Below, one piece after another: positions 15,270 through 59,252 of a DNA stretch of 64,000 nt. The position numbers were made by a program, and so were the translations under genes. Under the pieces are notes generated by a model that was not told where the DNA came from, did no database searches, and worked only from the letters and a program-made list of their open reading frames with translations. Numbering within the stretch: the first letter of the stretch is position 1; the number at the start of each line of letters is the position of its first letter. Source of the stretch: Thermodesulfobacteriota bacterium (GTDB lineage: Bacteria; Desulfobacterota; Desulfobacteria; Desulfobacterales; C00003060); NCBI GenBank assembly GCA_034189385.1, contig JAXHVD010000006.1, forward strand, positions 96,001 through 160,000, given 5' to 3'.

Positions 15270-16430
15270 ATGCGTATTCTCGTTGTTGAAGATGATGAGC
15301 CGACCCTGCTTCTCATGAAAGAATGGCTCGAGGGTTGGGGCCACACCGTTTATCCAGCGGAAAGCGGATTGGAGGGATGGACAAAGCTCAAGTCTGTTCC
15401 TGTGGACATCGTCGTGACCGACTGGATAACGCCGGAGATGAACGGGCTGGAGCTTTGCGAGCGTCTACGGAAGGCCGAATTCGGACGTTACATCTATCTC
15501 ATTCTGGTCACTGCCCAAGACTCACAACAAAACATCGTCCGTGGTCTCGAAGCAGGGGTAGACGATTACATTACAAAACCGCTCAACTTCGAGCAGGTGC
15601 GTGCACGCCTTGATATTAGTGCTAGGATCTTAAAACTGAAAAGTGAGCTCACTCGCAGGGACAACGTCATAAGGGACAACTATTTTCAGGCGATTCATAT
15701 GCTCATCAACCTGATAGCAGCCTTTAATGAGGACCTAGGCAACCACTGTAGAAGGGTGGCTACGTTATCTGTCAGGTTGGCAAAGCGCCTCCCCGACGTC
15801 TCGGACTACGACCTGTCCATTGTTGAGGCCACCGGCCTTCTTCATGACATCGGCATGGTAGGCATGCCGCCTAGCGTCCTGACAAAACGAACGACAGAAA
15901 TGAACGGTGAGGAAAAGGATTCTTACAAGTGCCACCCCGCTTACGGAGAAACTATTTTAAATAAAGTTAAAATGTTACAGCCTGTAGCTGCGTTGGTCAG
16001 GGCCCATCATGAACAGTTTAACGGTCGGGGCTTCCCTGACGGCCTGAAAGACAACGAAATCCCTCTTTTGGCGAAGATCGTCTCAGCGGCAGATGCTTAT
16101 GACAAGGCTTTCTACAACTGGAAGATACCATTGGAAGAGATCCCCGACTGTCTGCAACGGCAGCGGGGGTATCAATTGGCGCCTCCCTTAGTGGATCACC
16201 TTATGGAAATCAACTTGGAGGACATAGAGGAAGAACGAAGAAAGGACTTCTTTGAAGTCCTTTTGGATGACGTGCAGGAAGGCATGACGCTATCTCGCAG
16301 TGTGAGAATGAAAAATGGGACACTCGTCATGCCGGCCAACACGGAGCTGACCAGCTACGGCATTGAAAAGCTAAAGGAATATGTAGAGCTGAAACGTATC
16401 GGCAACAGACTCTATGTCTACAAGCATTAG
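15270..16430 (+). CDS. Response regulator with HD-GYP-like output domain
   Basis: REC (VEDD, VTDW, VTA, KP); H..RVA, LLHDIG, HP..GE, HHEQFNGRGFPDGL, IVSAADAYD. Confidence 0.9.
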   Translation: MRILVVEDDEPTLLLMKEWLEGWGHTVYPAESGLEGWTKLKSVPVDIVVTDWITPEMNGLELCERLRKAEFGRYIYLILVTAQDSQQNIVRGLEAGVDDYITKPLNFEQVRARLDISARILKLKSELTRRDNVIRDNYFQAIHMLINLIAAFNEDLGNHCRRVATLSVRLAKRLPDVSDYDLSIVEATGLLHDIGMVGMPPSVLTKRTTEMNGEEKDSYKCHPAYGETILNKVKMLQPVAALVRAHHEQFNGRGFPDGLKDNEIPLLAKIVSAADAYDKAFYNWKIPLEEIPDCLQRQRGYQLAPPLVDHLMEINLEDIEEERRKDFFEVLLDDVQEGMTLSRSVRMKNGTLVMPANTELTSYGIEKLKEYVELKRIGNRLYVYKH

Positions 16431-16441
16431 GGGAGAGTCAA

Positions 16442-16790
16442 ATGGACATTGCACCGGTCATCGGCCTTAAGGGGGGCTGCACCGAGGTGGCCAGTTTTCT
16501 TGATGGCAGTGGTTTATGTTTGTCAATTCCCCTAGCTTCGTGCTTCATCAAATTCTCCAGGAGAAATGTGATTCATTCCATCAAATTAGTCTGAAGGGCG
16601 TTCATGTGTAAAATGGGGCCAACAAATAAGTCCATAAAAAAGTGGCGTTTTTGCTAAAACCGTCAAGAAAGAGGCGTTGCTTGCCTCTTTCTAACGGGTT
16701 GCGCCAGCGCCTGGCGGACCATTCCAACATCTGACTATCCCGGGCTTCTCAAGAGTGCCTCATTGGCCATTTCCCAGAAACGAATCGTCT
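16442..16790 (+). pseudogene. Decayed motA/pomA-like stator gene
   Basis: RBS ggagag plus MDIAPVIGL; in shifting frames FVNSPS, FIKFSRRNVIHSIKLV*RAFMCK, FAKTVKKEALLA, in the order of MotA landmarks; upstream of a MotB-like gene. Confidence 0.6.
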
Positions 16791-16867
16791 TTCAATGCCC
16801 TGCACTGGTCCGTTCTTTCCTGTGATTACTATCGTCATCTTTAGTGGCCATGATGATGCCTTTTGCC

Positions 16868-17010
16868 TTGCACCGAATAAGCGAGCGCATTCCCCTTAGC
16901 TTGCTACGGGGTTAGCGAGCGTATAGTTAAACAGATAACAACCTTACGGTGCTGCGGAGCTCTCCCGTCAGGGAGAACATTCCCAGTGGCTTGCCACGGG
17001 GAGGGTTCAA
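16868..17010. mobile_element. 143-bp structured palindromic (MITE/REP-like) element
   Basis: Ends ttgcacc...ggttcaa; hairpins ccccttagcttgctacgggg, tctcccgtcagggaga, cccagtggcttgccacggg; repeated gcgagcg. Confidence 0.65.
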
Positions 17011-17190
17011 TTACCCTAAAGTCTTTTTTAAAACTGCCGATCTTTAGCAGTGAAAGGCGGTCGGAATGGATTCTCAAACAAAGGCCAATGGTCCCAGGCC
17101 CTAAGGCATGGGGCCGAGAGGAAGGGTGATGGGTTGGGCCTTTCGCAAAAAGCGACTGGGACATGCTGTGGAAGGACCCTTTGCGAGACG

Positions 17191-18417
17191 ATGAAGCCCA
17201 GGAGTATAACTCAAACCATCGTGCGATACGCCTTGATAACAGTGGCTTTTTTGATCGGCTGCTCCTATCAGCGCCACGTCACGCTTCCACTCCCTGATTT
17301 ACCCGAGGGCGTTCACGCCATCCCAAAAGAGAACATTTACGGGTCTTCCAGGGTGGCGGTCTTTGCATTTGCAGAGCCCTCTTACGCCCCTGGAACGGGA
17401 AGGCTTGCTGCGCAAACGATCGGTCATGCCTTGTTGAAAGAAGGCGTGTTTTCAGACGTGGTGGATGAATCTCAGCGGGTGTTCTTCGGCACAGCAAACC
17501 CCATGGATCTGGCCCGATCCGAAGCCTACGACCTGATCATCACCGGAGAGGTCCTCTACCACTTTGATGGCAGTGCATTACAAGCATCAAGGGTCACGGA
17601 GCGGATCCGCGTCAGGCACGTGGCCACCAAGAGGCTCCTCTGGCACGCCACTGCGGCAAGTGCGGGGAGGGCTGCCCCTTCTTTTGACTACATCCTGGTC
17701 AAGGGCATGGGATGTCCTGCGCTGCCCACCTCTGCCTTATTGCGGAGAAACGCGGAAAAGTTCTGTAACATGCTTCTCAGGCAGCCGCCTCAAGCCGCTC
17801 CCGCTGAAGAGAGTAGAGAGCTGCTGCTGATATCCCAGCAGTCGGCCTTGGAAGGGCTCCAAGAAAAGGTTAATGACCTGCTGGCACACAATGACGTGCT
17901 GGAAGAACAGCTTTGGGAAGAAATCCAGAAAAGCGAGGGGCTCCTCAAAGAGGTGGATAACCTTTCCGCACAGGCCGATCAAATGGAACAAGCGCTCAAA
18001 GAAGAGATCGAGAGGGGAGAGATCGCGCTGAAACGATATACTACTAAGACCGTCGTAAACCTGGACAACAGTATCTGTTTTGACTCCGGCTCAGCAAAAC
18101 TGAAAAAGGAAGTGAAAAAATCCCTGGCCAAACTCTCTAAGACCTTAAAGGACTTCCCAGATAACCATATCCAGATAGAAGGGCACACGGATGACCTTCC
18201 CACTCATGGCTATGATTTCTCTTCCAACTGGGAGCTTTCCTCAGCCCGTGCGGTGGCTGTCCTGCAATTCTTGGTGGGAAAAGGAGACATAGACTCCAAA
18301 AGGCTCTCTGCCGTGGGACACGGCGAAAACCGCCCCACCGTCCCGAACGATTCGCCTGAACACAGACGGATGAACCGCAGGGTAGACATTGTGGTTCTGC
18401 CGCCAAAGGCCCATTGA
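17191..18417 (+). CDS. Lipoprotein: CsgG/PelC-like N-domain, coiled coil, MotB/OmpA peptidoglycan-binding domain
   Basis: Lipobox LIGC; RVAVFAF...DLIITGEV...LLW; FDSGSAKL, IEGHTDD, NWELSSARA, NRRVDI. Confidence 0.85.
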   Translation: MKPRSITQTIVRYALITVAFLIGCSYQRHVTLPLPDLPEGVHAIPKENIYGSSRVAVFAFAEPSYAPGTGRLAAQTIGHALLKEGVFSDVVDESQRVFFGTANPMDLARSEAYDLIITGEVLYHFDGSALQASRVTERIRVRHVATKRLLWHATAASAGRAAPSFDYILVKGMGCPALPTSALLRRNAEKFCNMLLRQPPQAAPAEESRELLLISQQSALEGLQEKVNDLLAHNDVLEEQLWEEIQKSEGLLKEVDNLSAQADQMEQALKEEIERGEIALKRYTTKTVVNLDNSICFDSGSAKLKKEVKKSLAKLSKTLKDFPDNHIQIEGHTDDLPTHGYDFSSNWELSSARAVAVLQFLVGKGDIDSKRLSAVGHGENRPTVPNDSPEHRRMNRRVDIVVLPPKAH

Positions 18418-18449
18418 CCTGAAAAAGCGGTTAAAATAACCTGTGAAAG

Positions 18450-18463
18450 GTCAACGATTTGAC
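18450..18463. promoter_or_regulatory. Perfect GTCAA-N4-TTGAC palindrome (candidate UAS)
   Basis: GTCAACGATTTGAC, about 105 bp upstream of the sigma54 motif at 18568. Confidence 0.5.
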
Positions 18464-18567
18464 GCATGGTCGGGGACGTCACCATGCCATCAACCTTATG
18501 TTGAATTACCCCCTCCGTAAGCCCCCATATACTGTAGTCTTCAGGCCCATATCTTGGACGAACACGT

Positions 18568-18583
18568 TGGCATGATTCCTGCC
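18568..18583 (+). promoter_or_regulatory. Putative sigma54 promoter for the ATPase-HDOD pair
   Basis: TGGCATGATTCCTGCC, GG-N10-GC, about 95 bp upstream of the ATG. Confidence 0.65.
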
Positions 18584-18676
18584 TAAAAGGGGTTGGACTT
18601 GGTTCTCCCGTACCTTCCGTGAAGTTGGCGGTGGTGGAGACATCCGGTACATCCAACAGGTTGAGAGGCAGGCTTC

Positions 18677-20602
18677 ATGATGCCACTTCAGAAAGACGCT
18701 GCCGGGATCGGCCCGGGCAAAAAGGCGCCTCCGGCAGATCCTTCCAAAGACTTCGGTGAAATCGTACCCCTGCTCTTGCAGGAAGGGTATATAACGGAGA
18801 AGCAGGTCCGTTATGCCCAGAGGGTCCGGTCAAAGCTCGAAACGTCTGCCCCTTTGCTGGGAGTTGTAAAGGAACTCCAATATGTTACCGATAAACAGAT
18901 CGAGAAGGTGCTCAGGGCGAATTTGGGTATCATACGAACAGGAAGCCTCCTGGTTGAGCTGGGACATATCAGCGAAGCAGACCTAGAGGCCAGTCTTGAG
19001 ATCCAGAAAAGGGAAAACCCTAAAAAGAAGCTGGGCGAAATCCTTGTTGCCCACAATTTCATCAATGAACGGACCATACTGGAAACCCTTTCTTTGCAGC
19101 TCGGTTTTCCTATTGTGGAGCCAGAGTTTGTGGAAATTGATGAAAAACTTGCATCCAAAGGAAGAACTGAGTTGTATGTGACCCGGGGCTTTCTTCCCCT
19201 TCGCAGGGAAGGTCAGGGCGTCTTTATAGCCTTTGTAGATCCCACGGACAGTCGTGATGTGGAGGCGGCCAAGAAGCTCTTTGGCAATGACATTACTGTA
19301 GCCATAGCCACCAAGGACTCTATCATCCGGGGAATCAAACGGATTCAGCCCGATGCCAAGACGACCTTGTCTGTGGGGATGGATGACAGCTCAATCGTGG
19401 AAACCGCAGATGCCATTATTCTTGCAGCTATTGAAGAAGATGCCAGCGATATCCACATCGAGCCCATGCATGACCGGATTCGTGTCCGCTTCCGCCAAGA
19501 CGGCGTTCTGGTCCATTACAAGGATTTTCCCCTGGAAATCATTCCATCCCTTACCAGTCGCATCAAAATCATGTGCGAAGCGGACATTGCTGAGAAGCGC
19601 AGGCACCAGGGCGGCCGCATTCTCTTTCAGCACAAAGGCGGAGAACTGGACTTGCGGGTCTCCTTTTACGTCACTGTCCATGGCGAAAAGATCGTGTTGC
19701 GCCTGTTGAACCGCCAGAACCAACTCTTCGACCTCGAAGACATAGGCATGTCGCGCAGGATGCTGGAAAGGTTTAAGGAAGACGCTATTGATCGACCAAG
19801 TGGCGTGGTCATCATTACGGGGCCCACTGGGTCAGGAAAGACCACCACGGTCTATAGCTCCATCAACTACCTCAATGATCCCCAGACAAGCATTATCACT
19901 GCTGAAGAGCCTGTCGAATACGTTATCCCCGGCATATCCCAGTGTTCTATCGATCCCAAGATCAACCTCACCTTTGATGAGACATTGCGCCACATTGTAC
20001 GCCAGGACCCGGACATCGTGGTCATCGGTGAAATCCGTGATACCTATTCAGCCGGAGTTGCCGTGCAAGCAGCACTGACAGGGCACAAAGTCCTCACCAC
20101 CTTTCACACGGAGGACAGCATCGGAGGGCTCATCCGGCTGCTGAATATGGACATTGATGCCTTTCTGATCTCCTCCACGGTCGTGTGTGTGGTGGCCCAG
20201 CGGCTTTTGCGAAGGGTGTGTAAGTCCTGCGAAATGCCCCATCAGCTAAGCCCCGTGGAACTCCGTCGCCTCCATTACGGCCCCCAGGATGTCCTTGGGG
20301 TGGAGTTTCGAAAGGGTCGAGGATGTCCTGAGTGTCGATATTCAGGGTACAAGGGGCGGGTGGCCATATTTGAGCTCCTTGTTCTTGAAGAGCCGGTTCG
20401 CGACGCCATCTTGGCCCGTAAGACCAGTCATCAGATCCGCAGCATCAGCATAGAGAGCACGGGACTGGTGACCCTTTTGGAAGACGGCATCGTCAAGGCT
20501 GCTGCTGGTATTACCACTGTTGAAGAAGTGCTCAAGTGTCTTCCGCGGCTGCAAAGACCTAGGCCTCTGGCAGAGTTACAGCACCTTCTGGGAGGAGCAT
20601 GA
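18677..20602 (+). CDS. PilB/GspE/MshE family ATPase with MshEN-like N-terminus
   Basis: ASDIHIEP, GPTGSGKTTT, TAEEPVE, RQDPD..VIGEIRD, TGH.VLTTFH, CKSC..CPEC, GYKGR; RTGSLLVELGHI..LEIQ / KLGEILVAHNFI..LSLQ. Confidence 0.95.
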   Translation: MMPLQKDAAGIGPGKKAPPADPSKDFGEIVPLLLQEGYITEKQVRYAQRVRSKLETSAPLLGVVKELQYVTDKQIEKVLRANLGIIRTGSLLVELGHISEADLEASLEIQKRENPKKKLGEILVAHNFINERTILETLSLQLGFPIVEPEFVEIDEKLASKGRTELYVTRGFLPLRREGQGVFIAFVDPTDSRDVEAAKKLFGNDITVAIATKDSIIRGIKRIQPDAKTTLSVGMDDSSIVETADAIILAAIEEDASDIHIEPMHDRIRVRFRQDGVLVHYKDFPLEIIPSLTSRIKIMCEADIAEKRRHQGGRILFQHKGGELDLRVSFYVTVHGEKIVLRLLNRQNQLFDLEDIGMSRRMLERFKEDAIDRPSGVVIITGPTGSGKTTTVYSSINYLNDPQTSIITAEEPVEYVIPGISQCSIDPKINLTFDETLRHIVRQDPDIVVIGEIRDTYSAGVAVQAALTGHKVLTTFHTEDSIGGLIRLLNMDIDAFLISSTVVCVVAQRLLRRVCKSCEMPHQLSPVELRRLHYGPQDVLGVEFRKGRGCPECRYSGYKGRVAIFELLVLEEPVRDAILARKTSHQIRSISIESTGLVTLLEDGIVKAAAGITTVEEVLKCLPRLQRPRPLAELQHLLGGA

Positions 20603-21441
20603 TGGGGAAAAGATCTTTCGCAGACCTCCTGGATGAACACATCAAAAGCGAGAAGACCGTGCTTCCGCCATTTAACAAGACCGCTCTGCGTGTCCGGCGA
20701 GAAGTGGTTAAGGAGGAGCCGGACACCCGAGTGATAGAGGAACTCATTTCCCGTGACCAGTCTCTTGCAAGTCAGGTATTGAGGACCGCCAATTCCGCCT
20801 TTTGCGGTGGTCTCGTGAAAGTGATCACCGTGCACGATGCTGTCGTTCGTCTGGGAGTAAAAGAGGTTTCCAATATCGTCATCCTGGTCACACAGCGGAA
20901 CCACTTTCGCTCCAAAGACCCCTTTGTCAATGAGATCATGGAAAGACTCTGGCAACATTCCGTGCAATGCGCGATAGGGGCTCAGTGGCTTGCCAGGTAT
21001 TGCGGCTTTCAGTCCCTTGCAGATCAAGCCTTCATTGCAGGTTTGCTCCACGACGTTGGAAAACTGTTCCTTCTCATGGTCATCGAAGATATTTGCAGCT
21101 CCGGAAAGATGACCTCGCGACCCTCCCATGCCATGGTAAATGAAATCATGAACAGCTTGCACGCAGAACAGGGGTATTTTCTTCTGAAGAATTGGAACCT
21201 TCCGGAGACCTATTGCGTTATCGCCCGCGACCACCACACAGAGGAATTTGACTCCAAGGACCACTTGCTGGCAGTCATCCGACTGGTGAATAAGGCCTGC
21301 CACAAAATGGGCATTGGCTTGAAGACAGACACAGACATTGTCCTGGCGGCAAGTCCCGAAGCCGAGTTGCTGAACCTGTCTGAGGTCTCCCTGGCAGAGC
21401 TGGAGATCACGTTGGAAGACTCCCTGGCCCTGGCACCCTGA
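20599..21441 (+). CDS. HDOD domain protein
   Basis: LPP, DQSLASQVLRTANSA, AVVRLG, LWQHS, AGLLHDVGKL, H...G..L..WNLP; ATGA overlap with the ATPase stop. Confidence 0.93.
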   Translation: MMGKRSFADLLDEHIKSEKTVLPPFNKTALRVRREVVKEEPDTRVIEELISRDQSLASQVLRTANSAFCGGLVKVITVHDAVVRLGVKEVSNIVILVTQRNHFRSKDPFVNEIMERLWQHSVQCAIGAQWLARYCGFQSLADQAFIAGLLHDVGKLFLLMVIEDICSSGKMTSRPSHAMVNEIMNSLHAEQGYFLLKNWNLPETYCVIARDHHTEEFDSKDHLLAVIRLVNKACHKMGIGLKTDTDIVLAASPEAELLNLSEVSLAELEITLEDSLALAP

Positions 21442-21711
21442 AGGCGAGATCCTGAAAAACCCCAAGACACCTCATGGCGTGATGGCCTTTTCCTTGACAC
21501 AGGTTGATTTGTCCCTGTATTTGTGAATATAGGGGTATGTGTGTCCCGCTACGGATCCCACGCTGCATGTTGGCAGCAATGCCTCTTGTGAGTGCTAGGC
21601 AATAGACCCTCTGAAAGCCCCTGGGCTTTCCGACAACCGCCGTACGGACAAAAGGGTTACCCGTGGGGTTCAAAGGAGCCGTCCAAGTTCGCCCCGGAAG
21701 AGAGGAATTTG

Positions 21712-22395
21712 ATGGAAACAAAAATACTGATCGTTGATGACGACGTACATATCCGCAGCCTCCTTGCAAGCTTTATGGAGAAAAAGGGATACCACTTTGA
21801 CCTAGCCGAGAACGTGAACAGTGCCCTGGAATTCATGGAGAAAAACGAATATGATATTGTCTTAACGGACAAGAATATGCCTGATCAAGAGGGTAACCTT
21901 GAGGGAGGCATGACAGTATTGAGGTATGCTAAAGACCATGCGCCGGCCACGGAAGTGATCATGATTACAGGGTACGCCACCATAGAAACGGCTGTTGAAG
22001 CCATGAAACTCGGTGCCTTTGACTATGTCATGAAGCCCATTTCGCTCAATGAATTGGAAGAGAAAATCGAAAGAGTGTTGGAATATAGACGGTTCGTTAA
22101 TTCGGAAGATACGATCAAGACTTACAGAACCCTGCACAATCAATTGCTGAAGGTCCTAGAAAACAGAGAGGATCTTCCAGAGGATCGACTTCGCCAAATT
22201 ATAAAGACCCTGGGGGCAAGGATCGACAATGTGTTCGGTATGCAAAAGGATTATGAAACGATCATCCAGTCACAGGCCGATGCCTTAGAGCGAATTGAAG
22301 GGTACATAGCGGGCCTGGAGGAGACCATCCCCAAGGACAGTCCCTATTATGCCTTGATTGACAAAATTCGGGGGGAGTGCAAAAAACGAATATAA
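21712..22395 (+). CDS. Response regulator (REC plus short helical output)
   Basis: VDDD, LTDKNMP, ITGYA..ETAVEAMKLGAFDY..KP; RBS gagg. Confidence 0.9.
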   Translation: METKILIVDDDVHIRSLLASFMEKKGYHFDLAENVNSALEFMEKNEYDIVLTDKNMPDQEGNLEGGMTVLRYAKDHAPATEVIMITGYATIETAVEAMKLGAFDYVMKPISLNELEEKIERVLEYRRFVNSEDTIKTYRTLHNQLLKVLENREDLPEDRLRQIIKTLGARIDNVFGMQKDYETIIQSQADALERIEGYIAGLEETIPKDSPYYALIDKIRGECKKRI

Positions 22396-22425
22396 ACGAC
22401 GCCACATATTGTGAGGCCCTTTTTC

Positions 22426-22454
22426 TTGACACATCACCCGTTCTTTCCTATACT
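22426..22454 (+). promoter_or_regulatory. Near-consensus sigma70 promoter
   Basis: TTGACA-17 nt-TATACT. Confidence 0.65.
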
Positions 22455-22888
22455 CCTTTATCGTAATAAGCGAATCCTCTTCAGTTGTTCCCCCTGAACT
22501 TTCCTCACCAAAAGGCGAGTCCTTGTCAATCAGCGACATGGCACCATTTGGTCCCGAGGTGGAGACGTTGGCTATTCCCGTGACTGTGGGGCATGTTGTC
22601 CCCAAGTCGAATATATCAAGAATGTCGTATCACTGAAAGACATGGTTCAAACACCGGGTTGGCCCCTATGATCAAGAGGAGGCCTTCAAGGCAGGGGCCT
22701 TGAAACGTTTGGATTTCCGTCTTGTGTGATACAGGGTTGCATCTCAGGATTCGAGAAAGCAATGGGCCACACAAGGTTTCTCGTCCGTCTTTTTGACAAA
22801 ACGGTTTAAGCCAAAGCGCCTTTGCGCGTTTTTTCAAACAACTTGGCGTTGCTCTTGGCCAGGCGTGTCCTTGGGCGGAAAATAGCCC

Positions 22889-25198
22889 ATGGAGGTATCC
22901 GTGCCTCACGTTCCAAAGATTCTGGTTGTTGATGATGAGCCCCGTATCTGCGACAGCCTCAAAATAATATTGGGCCATGGCGGCTACGAGATACTGACCA
23001 GCTGCAGTGGCAAAGAGGCCTTGGCTTGTATGGCCCAACACCACATTGATCTTGTCATCTTGGACATGGTCATGCCTGAGACAGACGGCTGGGCGGTGCT
23101 GGACAGCATGGCTGGCCAGGAGGTACACACAAAGGTCATTGCCATGAGCGGCAATGCCTCCGTAGAGTCTGCAGTGGCAGTACTAAAGAGCGGCGCTTGT
23201 GATTATCTCAAGAAGCCCTTTGGGCATGACGAGCTCCTAGGACGGGTTCGAAGTGCCCTATCAAAGGACAGTGAAGAAAAAAGGAAGACTATCAGTCAAC
23301 ACCTGGAGCGGTCAGAGAGGCGATATCGATTCCTAGTCCAGGCTTCTCCTGACATCATCTATACACTCGACCGGGAAGGGCGGTTCACCTTTGTCAATGA
23401 TGCTGTTCATCACTTGCTTGGTTTCACCCGACAGGAGTTGATAGGCTCACCCTATACGACTGTTATCTATGAGAAAGATTTGAACAGGGCCAACTACCTT
23501 TTCAATGAAAGACGAACGGGAGACCGTGCGGCAGCAGGGGTGGAACTGCGATTGAGGATCGCTCAAAACGACAATGGGACTGAGCAACATGAGACCAGCT
23601 TTCTTCCCATAGAACTCAAAGCCACGGGCGTCTACGAATCACTGCGCCCTCAGGGTAGCCAGAAGAGATATTTGGGGACCTACGGTGTTGCCAGAGATAC
23701 AAGCAATCGAAAACGGGCAGAGGAGGCATTGCAGAGAAGCGAGGAACGTTATCGGGCATTATTCGAAAATAGCCCTATCGACACAGTCATCGTGGACCAT
23801 GAGGCAAGAGTGACAGATTTCAATCTTGCAAAGAGACGGTCAAGCGATAGGCTGCCCAAGGTTGGAGATGTGATGTACAAAGACTATGCCGGCAAGCACG
23901 GGACTGGCATGCTGGGTAAATTGAGAGAGTGCATGAGGACAGGGCTGCCTGAGGAGTTCCCGGAGCAAAGGTACGGTGATAGGTTCCTGCACATAAGGAT
24001 GTCTCCCTTCTCCGAGGGCGCCATCATCACATCCATAGACATCACGGCCCAGAAGAGGATCGAAGCGCAGTTCCAACAAGCTCAGAAGATCGAGGCCATT
24101 GGAACACTGGCTGGTGGCATTGCCCATGATTTTAATAACCTGCTTATGGCAGTGTTGGGAAATACCTCCTTGATACTCCACGACGTGGGTCCCGATCATC
24201 CCCACTATGAACGGCTAAAAAACATTGAAGAACACGTCAGAAGCGGAGCTGCACTCACCAGGCAGCTTCTCGGATATGCTAGGCAGAGACAGTATGAACT
24301 CCAGCGTATTGACTTAAATGCCTTGGTCAAAGAGACTGCCTATGCCTTTGGGAGAACAAGAAAGGACACTGTGCTTTACCAGGAATTGGCAGAAGGCCTG
24401 TATGAAATAGACGGTGACAAAGGCCAAATGGAGCAGGTTCTGTTGAATCTATACGTAAACGCCGCAGAGGCCATGCCTGGGGGCGGGAGCCTCTTTTTGA
24501 AAACCGTGAACCGATCCCGTGAAGAGGTCAGGGGCAAGCTCCATGATCCCCAACCTGGCAACTATGTCTTGTTGACAGTTACCGATACGGGTATTGGGAT
24601 GGATCGAGAAACTCGAGAGCGCGTATTTGATCCATTTTTTACCACAAAGGAACTGGGCCGAGGCACGGGGCTTGGGCTTGCTTCAGCCTATAGTGTCGTC
24701 AAGAGCCATGGTGGACACATTGAGGTGGCCTCAAAGAAGGGCAAGGGGACCACTTTCAGCATATATCTTCCTGCGACAAAAAAAAGGGAGGAGACCGCCA
24801 TCGCGGCATCTGAACAAAGTGCGATCAAGGGCAGAACCATCCTGTTGGTAGATGACGAAAAGATGATTCTGGATATAGGGGGTAAGGTGCTAAACCGCTC
24901 AGGTTACCATGTCCTGAAAGCGGCAGGGGGCAAAGAGGCGTTGCAGGTCTATAAAAGGCACAAAGATAAGATTGATCTGGTGATTCTGGATATGAGAATG
25001 CCTGACATGGGCGGCAGTGAGGTCTATAACCAAATCAAGGAGATAGACCCTGGCGTGAAAGTTCTCCTTGCCAGCGGTTACAGCATAGATAGCCAGGTGA
25101 GAGGACTTTTGGACCGTGGTTGTAACGGTTTTATTGAAAAGCCCTATAGAAGAGAAGAATTGACTGAGACCATAACGGAAATTTTGGACAAGCCATAG
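22889..25198 (+). CDS. Hybrid histidine kinase REC-PAS-PAS-HisKA-HATPase-REC
   Basis: N- and C-terminal REC domains; PAS (SPDIIY..GRFTFVN); AGGIAHDFNNLL, NLYVNA, DTGIGM, FDPFFTTK, GTGLGL. Confidence 0.95.
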   Translation: MEVSVPHVPKILVVDDEPRICDSLKIILGHGGYEILTSCSGKEALACMAQHHIDLVILDMVMPETDGWAVLDSMAGQEVHTKVIAMSGNASVESAVAVLKSGACDYLKKPFGHDELLGRVRSALSKDSEEKRKTISQHLERSERRYRFLVQASPDIIYTLDREGRFTFVNDAVHHLLGFTRQELIGSPYTTVIYEKDLNRANYLFNERRTGDRAAAGVELRLRIAQNDNGTEQHETSFLPIELKATGVYESLRPQGSQKRYLGTYGVARDTSNRKRAEEALQRSEERYRALFENSPIDTVIVDHEARVTDFNLAKRRSSDRLPKVGDVMYKDYAGKHGTGMLGKLRECMRTGLPEEFPEQRYGDRFLHIRMSPFSEGAIITSIDITAQKRIEAQFQQAQKIEAIGTLAGGIAHDFNNLLMAVLGNTSLILHDVGPDHPHYERLKNIEEHVRSGAALTRQLLGYARQRQYELQRIDLNALVKETAYAFGRTRKDTVLYQELAEGLYEIDGDKGQMEQVLLNLYVNAAEAMPGGGSLFLKTVNRSREEVRGKLHDPQPGNYVLLTVTDTGIGMDRETRERVFDPFFTTKELGRGTGLGLASAYSVVKSHGGHIEVASKKGKGTTFSIYLPATKKREETAIAASEQSAIKGRTILLVDDEKMILDIGGKVLNRSGYHVLKAAGGKEALQVYKRHKDKIDLVILDMRMPDMGGSEVYNQIKEIDPGVKVLLASGYSIDSQVRGLLDRGCNGFIEKPYRREELTETITEILDKP

Positions 25199-25252: not shown

Positions 25253-26614
25253 CTAAGGATTCTTACTTGTACCAAGGGTCTGGAGGACGGTCTCGATCAC
25301 TTCAGATGCCTCAGGGCTTTTTACCACGACTGCATCCGCACCGGCTTCCAGGGCGCGCTTTCGCGTTTCAGCCCGATGGTCGGCAGTAAATAGGACCAGT
25401 TTCGTATCCTTGCAGGTATCTACTGCACGCACTCGCCGACACACCTCTATGCCAGTTAGAGTGGGCAGCGTGAAATCGATCACTGCTGCCACTGGTTTTT
25501 CCCGAATGATCAGATCCAGCCCGTCTCCTCCATTGGTTGCGGTCATTGGATGAAATCCGACCTTCTGAAAAAGACGGGCATAGAGTCTCAATATTACCGG
25601 ATTGTCGTCCACGATGACCAGCTTATTAGGTTCCAGTGGCGTCAGGGTGGGGCGGCTCTCGTCATCCTCCTCATAGTCAATCACCAAGAGCATGTCAGCC
25701 CCTTCCAGGACGGTCTCTCGGTCCGGGAAGATAAAATCTCGGCCGTTCTTGCGAAGCCCCATGATCTCCCGGCCCATCACCATGGAAACGGAGCGTATCG
25801 TTTCGCCCAACATGCTGGACCCCTCTTGGACACTTACCCATTGGGGGACTGCCTTGTGGCGGCGAGTCTCGTGCAATGTCGCCCGCTTCCGCGTAGCCGA
25901 AAGCACTTGCTCCGCGATCTGTTTGCCTGCAGTGGCAAAAGGTGAAATGACGTTATTCGCTCCACCGCGCAGTATCTTTTTCTCCGATGATGGATTCTCC
26001 GCCCGTGCGATGATGTGCAGCATAGGATTTAGATCCCGGGCAGTGAGGGCAGTAAAAAGATTGTCAGGGTCTGAATTGAGGAGGGCAAGAAGACCAGCGG
26101 CAGATTTTATTCCAGCCCCTAGCAATGTGGCTTCCCTCGTAGCGTCTCCTTCAACAATGAGATAGCCCTTCTCTCGAATCTTATGGGTCTGTGCTGCATT
26201 AGCCTCGATGATGACAAAATCAGCGCCTGTTTCTCTGAAATACTCCGCAGCGGCCATCCCAACCCTTCCATAGCCACAAACAACATAGTGGGACTTCAGG
26301 CCAGAGATCTTCTTTCTCATTTTCCTTATCCCCGATTTACCACTCCAGACCTTTTCAAGGAGCGATTCAACTATGGCATGTCCAACAAATGCAAGGCCTC
26401 CAACGCCAACAAGGATAAGCACGGTGGTGAATCCCCGCCCTATCTCCGATAGCGGTTTTACTTCCCCGAAGCCTACGGTCGTGATGGTAATGACGGACAT
26501 GTAGAGGGCTTCAAAGAATGTGTAATCCTCAATGAGGATATAGCCTGAGGTCCCAATGGCAATAATACTCAGGCACAGCGTCAAAGCCATCGTGATGCGT
26601 CGACGCGAAGACAT
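25253..26614 (-). CDS. 2-TM potassium channel with RCK (TrkA-N/TrkA-C) domains and C-terminal REC domain
   Basis: Pore ALYMSVITITTVGFGE; VVCGYGRVG, EGDAT, DPDNL, IIARA; C-terminal IVDDNP..AVIDF..LFTAD..VVKS. Confidence 0.92.
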   Translation of the reverse strand: MSSRRRITMALTLCLSIIAIGTSGYILIEDYTFFEALYMSVITITTVGFGEVKPLSEIGRGFTTVLILVGVGGLAFVGHAIVESLLEKVWSGKSGIRKMRKKISGLKSHYVVCGYGRVGMAAAEYFRETGADFVIIEANAAQTHKIREKGYLIVEGDATREATLLGAGIKSAAGLLALLNSDPDNLFTALTARDLNPMLHIIARAENPSSEKKILRGGANNVISPFATAGKQIAEQVLSATRKRATLHETRRHKAVPQWVSVQEGSSMLGETIRSVSMVMGREIMGLRKNGRDFIFPDRETVLEGADMLLVIDYEEDDESRPTLTPLEPNKLVIVDDNPVILRLYARLFQKVGFHPMTATNGGDGLDLIIREKPVAAVIDFTLPTLTGIEVCRRVRAVDTCKDTKLVLFTADHRAETRKRALEAGADAVVVKSPEASEVIETVLQTLGTSKNP

Positions 26615-27196: not shown

Positions 27197-27415
27197 ATGA
27201 ACACAAGACAGAGGCTTAGGAAGTTTGTATCCACTGGGGAGATCGCGGAAATGTTGGAGGTCAGCCCACGAACTATTAGAAACTGGATCAACAAAGGTGA
27301 CATCAAGGCATACAAGATTGGCCAGAATCTGAAGATCCCCGCGGCAGAAGTCGTTCAGATGCTTCAGCGCTATGATCAACCCATCCCCGAGTGGCTGAAA
27401 GGTGGGGATGCGTAA
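27197..27415 (+). CDS. Small HTH_17 (excisionase-like) DNA-binding protein
   Basis: FVSTGEIAEMLEVSPRTIRNWINKGDIKAYKIG..KIP; RBS gagg. Confidence 0.88.
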   Translation: MNTRQRLRKFVSTGEIAEMLEVSPRTIRNWINKGDIKAYKIGQNLKIPAAEVVQMLQRYDQPIPEWLKGGDA

Positions 27416-28130
27416 CCTCCAACTCATGCCACATGGAAAAGCTAACACGGTTTTTCTGCTCATCGGCGAAGTCGGCATATCCACTTTCTAGGCGGTGGTC
27501 CCCATTGCCGACAAAGCAGAGGTCTCCTTCCTGGCTTGCCGATGCAAAGGGCTCGAAGATCGATACAGATGACCTTGGCGAAAAGTACCGGGCTGGTCAC
27601 TCGATGATCGTGCTCTCTTTCAAGTAGATTCTGGCTCGTGGCATAGTCACTCTGGCCCTTGCAGCGGGTGTCCATATCTTAGGTTCTATAACCAAGCCTA
27701 TCAGGGATCAAAAACGGGGTGAGTAAAGGGGTTGATTCCGGAACCCCTGCATCGGGGCAGGTGCCATCTTCCGGCCAAGATGTGGCTAGGGGGGCATCTT
27801 CATAGGCGCATCTTCATAGGCGCATCTTCATAGGCGGCATATCTGGAGGAGATGTCCTCTATGACTAGGCACAACGCTGACAAGGCTCATCAGGTCGACA
27901 AATCAATGGATCACCATGGGTGACATATCCAAGGCAAGGGAGGAGGCTTCTAAGATCATCAAGACTATCGATAAGAGCCTCTCAGACGAATCTTTTGGCC
28001 CTCAACGCTGCCATTGAGGCAGCCAGGGCAAGAGAGGCCGGCAGGAAGACCGGTAGGTGCGCAAAGAGGGCCCAGCGAAAAGGACCGAGGCCTATGACAT
28101 CATGGCCAGCATGTAGGGAATGGAAATCCT
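27408..28130 (+). pseudogene. Decayed methyl-accepting chemotaxis protein
   Basis: Fragments [72 protein letters not shown] in several frames, colinear with the intact MCP at 28791; ends approximate. Confidence 0.8.
27794..27835 (+). repeat. Perfect tandem repeat, 3 x 14 bp (gcatcttcataggc)
   Basis: Directly visible inside the MCP pseudogene. Confidence 0.95.
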
Positions 28131-28194
28131 AATCAGGCCGTTCCCAGGTAATGATGGTTTCAAGGATTTCCGATGAAGAGGAGGAACAAGACAA

Positions 28195-59178: not shown

Positions 59179-59252
59179 TGGGGTGTCGTCAAGTGGTAAG
59201 ACACAGGATTTTGGTTCCTGCATCGGAGGTTCGAATCCTCCCACCCCAGCCA
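59179..59252 (+). tRNA. tRNA-Gln (TTG)
   Basis: Cloverleaf: tggggtg/cacccca acceptor, cagga-tt TTG gt-tcctg anticodon arm, GGTTCGAATCC, encoded CCA. Confidence 0.97.

Follow-up and report, generated by a model that had tools for sequence, protein, structure and literature searches.

A Two-Transmembrane-Helix RCK Potassium Channel Fused to a Receiver Domain: A Candidate Output of Two-Component Signalling in a Lineage Lacking Helix alphaG

For most bacterial K+ channels, the stimulus that opens them in vivo is poorly understood. The known RCK gates answer small ligands, namely Ca2+, nucleotides, and glutathione (PMC2154358; PMC3510474; PMC2920069). The RCK dimer of MthK is held by interlocking alphaF-turn-alphaG helices (PMC3510474; PMC2154358), and its soluble RCK chain starts at Met107 (PMC2920069); in GsuK, RCK1 is without alphaG and the C-subdomains are loosely packed, and this nucleotide-gated channel still works (PMC3510474). 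Control of an RCK-containing K+ transporter by the end-point of a phosphorelay is also described: E. coli YcgO is controlled by PtsN according to the phosphorylation state of the latter (PMC11808508). The locus described here, within a stretch of 64,000 nucleotides (the window), joins an MthK-like channel to a receiver domain (REC) in one chain; the fusion is real, and it represents a conserved family that seems not to have been characterised.

A single unbroken ORF (Table 1) encodes a channel-receiver protein of 453 aa (P0001; hereafter channel-REC). Pfam profiles place Ion_trans_2 at residues 13–83 (E 3e-15), TrkA_N at 110–225 (E 7e-33), and Response_reg at 333–443 (E 5e-18); TrkA_C matches residues 259–312 at 26.6 bits, just below its cut-off of 27, and among the best 25 NCBIfam matches listed none exceeded its own cut-off. 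The pore region has two TM helices, a pore helix, and the TxG[YF]G filter in the form TVGFG. The RCK region has the Rossmann N-lobe (strong TrkA_N), alphaF, and C-lobe (weak TrkA_C) together with a Foldseek match to MthK, and the chain contains only one TrkA_N, that is, no two tandem RCK domains. The receiver carries the acidic pair, phospho-Asp, Thr, and Lys on a (beta/alpha)5 fold. Pfam and the structural model thus agree on the order pore, RCK-N, RCK-C, REC given in a preliminary description of this DNA, with RCK-C as the weak element; every motif named there (TVGFG, GYGRVG, DD, AVIDF, FTAD, VVKS) is present, and the receiver, placed there at about 25270–25630, was found at 25274–25624.

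Table 1. Features of the channel-REC gene and its surroundings (window positions; residues are those of channel-REC)
Feature	Position	Strand	Basis
2TM K+ channel-RCK-receiver fusion gene	25253-26614	-	ORF, Pfam, model
Pore domain: TM1 (7-28), pore helix, TVGFG, TM2 (57-86)	26357-26596	-	Pfam Ion_trans_2, model
TVGFG filter, residues 46-50	26465-26479	-	sequence motif
Met99, candidate internal start of soluble RCK-REC chain	26318-26320	-	alignment, SD-like stretch upstream
RCK N-lobe (TrkA_N) with nucleotide motif	25940-26287	-	Pfam, alignment
GxGxxG of RCK N-lobe (GYGRVG, residues 114-119)	26258-26275	-	sequence motif
Crossover helix alphaF (230-241), then variable low-confidence 242-254	25853-25927	-	model, alignment
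RCK C-lobe (TrkA_C), weakly conserved	25673-25852	-	26.6 bits; identity
Flexible charged linker, residues 315-329	25628-25672	-	pLDDT <50; identity 0.18
Receiver domain with highly conserved helix alpha1	25274-25624	-	Pfam, alignment, fold match
REC acidic pair D336/D337	25604-25609	-	phospho-site motif
REC phospho-acceptor D380 (AVIDF)	25475-25477	-	phospho-site motif
REC T410 (FTAD)	25385-25387	-	phospho-site motif
REC K432 (VVKS)	25319-25321	-	phospho-site motif
REC-HD-GYP	15270-16430	+	domain match
OmpA/MotB-like protein	17050-18417	+	domain match
MshEN-T2SSE ATPase	18677-20602	+	domain match
HDOD protein	20599-21441	+	domain match
REC protein	21592-22395	+	domain match
REC-PAS-HisKA-HATPase-REC hybrid kinase, convergent neighbour	22889-25198	+	Pfam
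HTH_17 (excisionase-like) gene, actual divergent neighbour of channel	27197-27415	+	domain match
Frameshifted MCP remnant directly upstream of cheW	about 27600-28132	+	sequence match
tRNA, sole Rfam match in window	59179-59249	+	Rfam

An AlphaFold2 model of the whole protein, built on 90 sequences (pLDDT 82, pTM 0.42), starts with TM1, a pore helix, and a TM2-linker helix, continues with a Rossmann lobe and a small C-lobe, and closes with a domain of (beta/alpha)5 fold. TM2 continues through the linker as one unbroken helix (57–104). Confidence falls below pLDDT 50 at residues 243–254 and in the second linker (about 315–329), with well-folded domains between; residues 242–254 occupy the place of helix alphaG in conventional RCK channels. 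MthK and GsuK are the top matches both by sequence and by whole-model fold, and the REC fold is closest to the receiver domains CheY, Spo0F, and PhoB (~1.5 A rmsd). Folding RCK-C together with REC gave pTM 0.61, about the expectation for REC alone (124/202 residues); the prediction thus gives REC no set position against the C-lobe. A complex prediction with two RCK (99–316) and two REC (327–450) chains scored 0.00, controls not folded, and carries no weight as evidence.

The preliminary description had named an assembly artefact or a singleton as outcomes that would undo the fusion, and neither holds, given contigs that bridge the junction and 171 REC-fused relatives. A contig from run X1 covers 25565–25914 with 0 differences, and one from run X2, from another study, covers 25481–25914 with 44 differences; in the linker the latter has a −1 and a +1 indel that together restore the frame. 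Both cross the RCK-C/REC junction, which rules out a misassembly as the source of the fusion; the evidence is for the junction, as no single listed piece covers the whole channel-REC gene. The family set consists of 137 clade-A and 34 clade-B fusions, the more distant clade B having come from two profile searches, the first of them run on representatives at 50% identity. A receiver is present in all 120 of the best matches listed from the first homologue search, and a scan of genome contigs with the single channel-REC protein as query gave 3 loci. By source name, the fusions belong mostly to Deltaproteobacteria/Thermodesulfobacteriota (e.g., Desulfosarcina sp. BuS5, P0086; Thiovibrio frasassiensis, P0109), and also to Planctomycetota, Nitrospiraceae, and others. 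Their spread is patchy: 7/401 class genomes and 3/401 phylum-sample genomes (the window's genome counted in both, and only the best 4 candidates per genome scored), 4/6 genomes of one other family, and 0/36 other genomes of the window's genus. The one same-genus match besides the window's genome (G791) proved to be a conventional alphaG-bearing channel without REC. Automatic annotations already show the architecture, e.g., [quoted passage not shown].

The full set of five phospho-site residues is found in 157/171 fusions (128/137 in clade A, 29/34 in clade B); the other 14 are missing at least one or are cut there. Mean identity within clade A is 0.62 for REC, 0.58 for the pore, 0.45 for RCK-C, and 0.18 for the linker. 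REC dN/dS is 0.10–0.25 in the 4 close pairs among the 8 unsaturated of 190 pairs from 20 genes, the window gene being in none of these. These values indicate purifying selection on REC. Two fusion genes are broken, one in clade B by an in-frame TAG between RCK-C and REC (L092:1228–1230) and one by a frameshift in an A-rich run just past the Met99 equivalent (L002:6500–6540); either break may be a sequencing error or mark a pseudogene.

The most conserved REC surface among 49 nonredundant clade-A rows is helix alpha1, with conservation of 0.8–1.0 at N338, P339, I341, L344, Y345, R347, and L348; the conserved set of clade B (27 rows) differs from that of clade A. In receivers generally, alpha1 is the usual contact face for a kinase or Hpt domain, and alpha4-beta5-alpha5 is the usual output face. 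The pattern would fit either a conserved kinase or Hpt partner or a docking face. In the pore, the filter glycine G50 is kept in 120/137 clade-A fusions versus 46/126 conventional relatives. Where the latter do not keep this second filter glycine they have R, S, Q, or K, which means that a noncanonical filter is common among annotated "K+ channels" of conventional RCK type.

The interlocking alphaF-turn-alphaG interface of the MthK type is missing from the REC fusions. Scored by alignment, the alphaG motif occurs in 106/126 conventional relatives versus 0/137 clade A and 0/34 clade B, and also in 0/25 hemerythrin-tailed and 0/24 tail-less channels; the tail-less group is partly circular, as four rows were moved in after the absence of alphaG had been seen (P0137 was left out), and before regrouping the motif was present in 71/89 unfused channels. 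Since 24 alphaG-less relatives have no tail, alphaG loss is independent of REC.

The ligand site also departs from MthK. The MthK Ca2+ ligands D184/E210/E212 align to L178/R204/E206, so that D184 and E210 are replaced, and the nucleotide motif is retained: in clade A, G114 is kept in 137/137, G116 in 137/137, G119 in 136/137, and an acidic residue at E/D137 in 136/137, and the G-D/N step of the motif (G156-D157) is nearly invariant in the alignment. The motif is intact in every channel group, including the 24 tail-less relatives. Replacement of D184 and E210 together with retention of GxGxxG, E137, and G-D/N argues for nucleotide rather than Ca2+ binding, as in GsuK RCK2 and in KTN domains, and the RCK lobe is accordingly predicted to bind an adenine nucleotide. 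A further parallel to MthK lies at Met99, which stands ten residues ahead of the first RCK His, in the exact alignment register of MthK Met107. The equivalent residue is Met in 133/137 clade-A proteins, and anti-SD energy there averages −6.8 over 15 genes versus −3.1 at 151 other Met codons (rank 15/191 positions). The conservation, register, and ribosome-binding signal make it plausible that Met99 starts a soluble RCK-REC chain, giving a ring with eight RECs.

Beyond the receiver, the C-terminus varies. An Hpt-like tail of 120–185 aa follows REC in 31/171 fusions from both clades (e.g., P0055, P0144), with the His motif in 30; a fused Hpt is absent from 138. Two clade-B proteins (P0151, P0393; 773–774 aa) instead carry a CheA-P1-like Hpt ahead of channel-RCK-REC, this CheA-like N-terminus consisting of a P1-type Hpt and ~200 further residues. 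In P0400, alphaF runs directly into a degenerate REC with no C-lobe. A search of longer fusions (794–2265 aa) gave 113 matches, none of which joins a REC-type channel to a kinase, though as evidence this is weak. In 25 related alphaG-less channels (P0193, P0214, P0401–P0439), two of them with the source names Spirochaetes/Spirochaetota, a C-terminal hemerythrin stands where REC sits. All four of the iron-ligand motifs scored, which we take to be those of the hemerythrin family, are found in 20/25, and these proteins are candidate O2-sensing K+ channels; a literature search for a hemerythrin-fused K+ channel found no paper.

The history of these tails was followed in quick trees. In one of 67 selected rows (residues 10–238, i.e., pore and RCK-N, with alphaG and tails excluded), a branch with SH-aLRT 86 (not starred) separates off every alphaG-less channel, clade A has SH-aLRT 99, and hemerythrin-tailed and tail-less forms nest inside REC-bearing clade B. 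This nesting suggests that the channel treats its tail as a sensory module open to exchange; with a root among the conventional channels, REC would be the original tail, and its replacement or loss would have followed. The data do not reject a common origin for clades A and B (p-AU 0.636); a larger tree did not join them.

A REC-PAS-HK-REC hybrid kinase converges on the channel gene as previously described, with Pfam domains confirming its architecture and 54 nt separating the two genes. Its suggested role as cognate partner finds no such support: where a kinase adjoins the channel elsewhere (L001, L002, L018, L020), the window's genome has no clear orthologue of it (best 30–50% identity), and 15/23 fused loci, several with short flanks, are without a two-component gene inside 1.5 kb. 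In 36 genus relatives the hybrid kinase itself was not found at E 1e-170. An HK, REC, or Hpt gene does occur within 1.5 kb in 8/23 fused loci versus 4/68 unfused channel loci (p 0.0014), in 7/22 without the window, and in 6/21 versus 2/66 after syntenic loci are merged and the window is dropped; short flanks are frequent in this comparison, and related loci do not count as independent. Hybrid kinases adjoin the channel in L001, L002, L020, and L042; L002, L018, and L020 have REC-GGDEF genes adjacent to the channel or to its kinase; in L026 the gene after the channel encodes a stand-alone Hpt, and in L027 a neighbour encodes a REC. Other neighbours are housekeeping genes, and no conserved orthologous neighbour gene was found across the fused loci. 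The window's genome has about 132 frames with two-component domains; about 62 frames contain a kinase, and no single one stands out as the partner.

Several further observations concern the surroundings. The hybrid kinase ends a signalling-rich stretch on the forward strand (15270–25198; Table 1). A low-depth run X1 contig skips the channel gene, joining the end of the kinase (25199) to the HTH gene (27218); with a shorter side of only 46 nt, it hints weakly at a related strain that has no channel gene at this spot. The window's genome has 7 Ion_trans_2 genes, of which at least 2 others (L004, L007) are unfused RCK channels, and the unfused RCK channels L040, L046, and L056 have a receiver gene next on the same strand (REC-HD-GYP in L040). 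Promoter and terminator scans gave chance-level results only, and GC content is flat, with no genomic island signal.

We favour, with a probability of roughly 0.55, the reading that the tethered REC, through its phosphorylation, biases how a nucleotide-binding RCK ring gates. The MthK-like tetrameric channel would then itself be the output of a two-component or phosphorelay signal. Full-length chains and soluble Met99-started RCK-REC chains would form an eight-RCK gating ring, loaded with adenine nucleotide instead of Ca2+ and with as many as eight receivers around its rim; the absence of alphaG would leave the C-lobe and REC loosely attached to the ring, much as the C-subdomains of GsuK are. 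A histidine kinase or Hpt protein, maybe encoded elsewhere, would phosphorylate D380, and REC, in its phosphorylated or its unphosphorylated form, would dock on or release the ring and so shift the alphaF hinge. Through the TM2-linker helix this shift would change open probability, and with it K+ flux and membrane potential, with either sign.

Evidence in favour of gating by REC includes the intact phospho-sites, a REC as conserved as the pore, low dN/dS, the Hpt-fused relatives, the enrichment of two-component neighbours, the well-kept K+ filter, the REC/hemerythrin swap in clade B, and the working of GsuK without alphaG. Against it stand the lack of predicted REC packing, alphaG loss in tail-less relatives as well, the 14 imperfect phospho-sites and the broken L092 and L002 genes, the 15 loci without a two-component neighbour, and a conserved REC face that is alpha1 and not alpha4-beta5-alpha5; the REC-Hpt tails would equally fit a relay passing phosphate onward.

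The main rival reverses the flow of information: the channel and RCK ring would be a membrane-anchored sensor or scaffold (for K+, membrane potential, or ATP/ADP) that sets REC phosphorylation or phosphotransfer, with REC as a relay node (kinase-REC-Hpt-regulator) or phosphate sink and flux outside its control. The REC-Hpt order of the 31 tailed fusions is that of relay intermediates, established for ArcB/BvgS-type kinases, and alpha1 as the most conserved surface, the absence of predicted REC-RCK packing, and the REC-GGDEF genes near three channels point the same way. This arrangement is nonetheless unlikely: most fusions have no fused Hpt, the pore filter is well kept, and hemerythrin, a ligand sensor with no phosphotransfer chemistry, reads more easily in REC's place as a swap of inputs.

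It is more doubtful still that REC acts on the channel indirectly, its phosphorylated form controlling ring assembly, localisation, partner binding, or turnover while nucleotides gate at the RCK lobe. The flexible 15-residue linker with no fixed contact predicted would suit such an arrangement, as would a nucleotide motif intact even in tail-less relatives; no docking partner, localisation signal, or conserved neighbour gene is in evidence to go with it.

Chemosensory control, in which CheA would phosphorylate REC like a CheY as part of the pathway to which the nearby cheW/MCP genes belong, appears very improbable. The preliminary description had the channel diverging from the cheW/MCP unit, and this requires correction in that the two are not direct neighbours, as the intervening 1.58 kb holds an HTH_17 gene and an MCP remnant; the order on that side is HTH_17, broken MCP, then cheW and MCP at 1.6–3.3 kb. 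These two genes, cheR/cheB near L018, the CheA-P1-like Hpt of P0151 and P0393, and the presence of CheA and Hpt domains in all 9 other carrier genomes tested could be taken to favour a chemosensory role. However, cheW, MCP, and HTH_17 matches occur in 0/22 other fused loci (7 of them under 5 kb), which places HTH_17 outside any conserved unit, and CheA in 7/8 carriers of the class is no enrichment over a baseline of 288/401 (72%; p 0.46). In the window's genome (assembly 90% complete) no CheA dimer domain or flagellin was found; it has two CheW, CheR, MCPs, and only one Hpt, inside an HK-REC-REC-Hpt kinase (C12:40237–43653), so that the CheA expected beside a CheY-type receiver is apparently absent. 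The MCP remnant and the retained CheW, MCP, and CheR genes possibly represent a decaying chemosensory system. Of the control by "two-component or chemosensory" signals proposed earlier, the first part is supported as an interpretation by the conserved fusion, the selected phospho-site, the Hpt-fused relatives, and the neighbour enrichment, and the second is not; taken together, the neighbourhoods and CheA counts support a phosphorelay link but neither a chemosensory link nor a dedicated neighbouring kinase. That REC is a neutral or artefactual passenger, as its patchy spread might suggest, is already largely refuted by the 171 fusions of two deep clades, by the purifying selection seen on REC, and by independent junction contigs.

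If gating by REC is correct, a receiver on an RCK ring adds ion flux to the outputs of two-component systems, whose signals would act on an ion channel directly and not via gene expression. The question can be put to a direct test, because the receiver is switchable by BeF3- or a single Asp mutation and sits on a small MthK-like channel, which suits bilayers and cryo-EM. New here are the Hpt-like tails, the lineage-wide loss of alphaG, and the hemerythrin-for-REC sub-lineage, whose members are a separate lead toward an O2-sensing K+ channel. The broadest form of the proposal is more tentative, its odds falling slightly short of even: a channel gated directly by two-component phosphorylation, in an alphaG-shedding lineage that accepts receiver, receiver-Hpt, or O2-binding hemerythrin inputs, may let sediment anaerobes turn kinase signals or oxygen into fast changes of K+ flux and membrane potential without transcription.

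The preliminary description knew of no characterised channel of this architecture, and none came to light here: a literature search found no paper on a receiver-fused K+ channel, domain-census supplements being places where the architecture could still be listed, and none of the 60 best sequence matches listed among solved structures joins a K+ channel, RCK, and REC. Galperin's response-regulator census reportedly lists rare "transporter" outputs, and this architecture may therefore already have a catalogue entry while being uncharacterised. Among response regulators with non-DNA-binding outputs, the channel REC is placed C-terminal to an ion channel. It shares the canonical (beta/alpha)5 fold and full phospho-site of CheY/Spo0F-type receivers, but has no aromatic switch at beta5 (V429) and no Pro after K432.

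The closest functional counterpart found is PtsN control of YcgO, in which the end-point of a phosphorelay likewise acts on an RCK-bearing K+ transporter; YcgO differs in being a CPA1 K+/H+ antiporter whose CorC domain is bound by a separate PTS EIIA protein, with no fused Asp-phosphorylated receiver. GsuK (Geobacter sulfurreducens, PDB 4gx0) matches channel-REC in fold and in its GxGxxG...D/E nucleotide motif and in the absence of alphaG (in GsuK, from RCK1); it has two tandem RCKs gated by ADP and NAD+, whereas channel-REC has one RCK and a receiver. MthK (PDB 1lnq, 6oly, 8djb), a Ca2+-gated 2TM-RCK channel, shares with channel-REC a 2TM pore, one RCK per chain, an internal Met in the same register, and ~26% identity over ~315 residues; in channel-REC, however, the Ca2+ ligands D184/E210 are replaced, GxGxxG stands where MthK has GWSEST, alphaG is gone, and a C-terminal receiver is added. 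Judged by its sequence, channel-REC acts like an RCK-gated 2TM K+ channel that is neither of the MthK type, given its alphaG region and Ca2+ site, nor of the GsuK type, given its single RCK.
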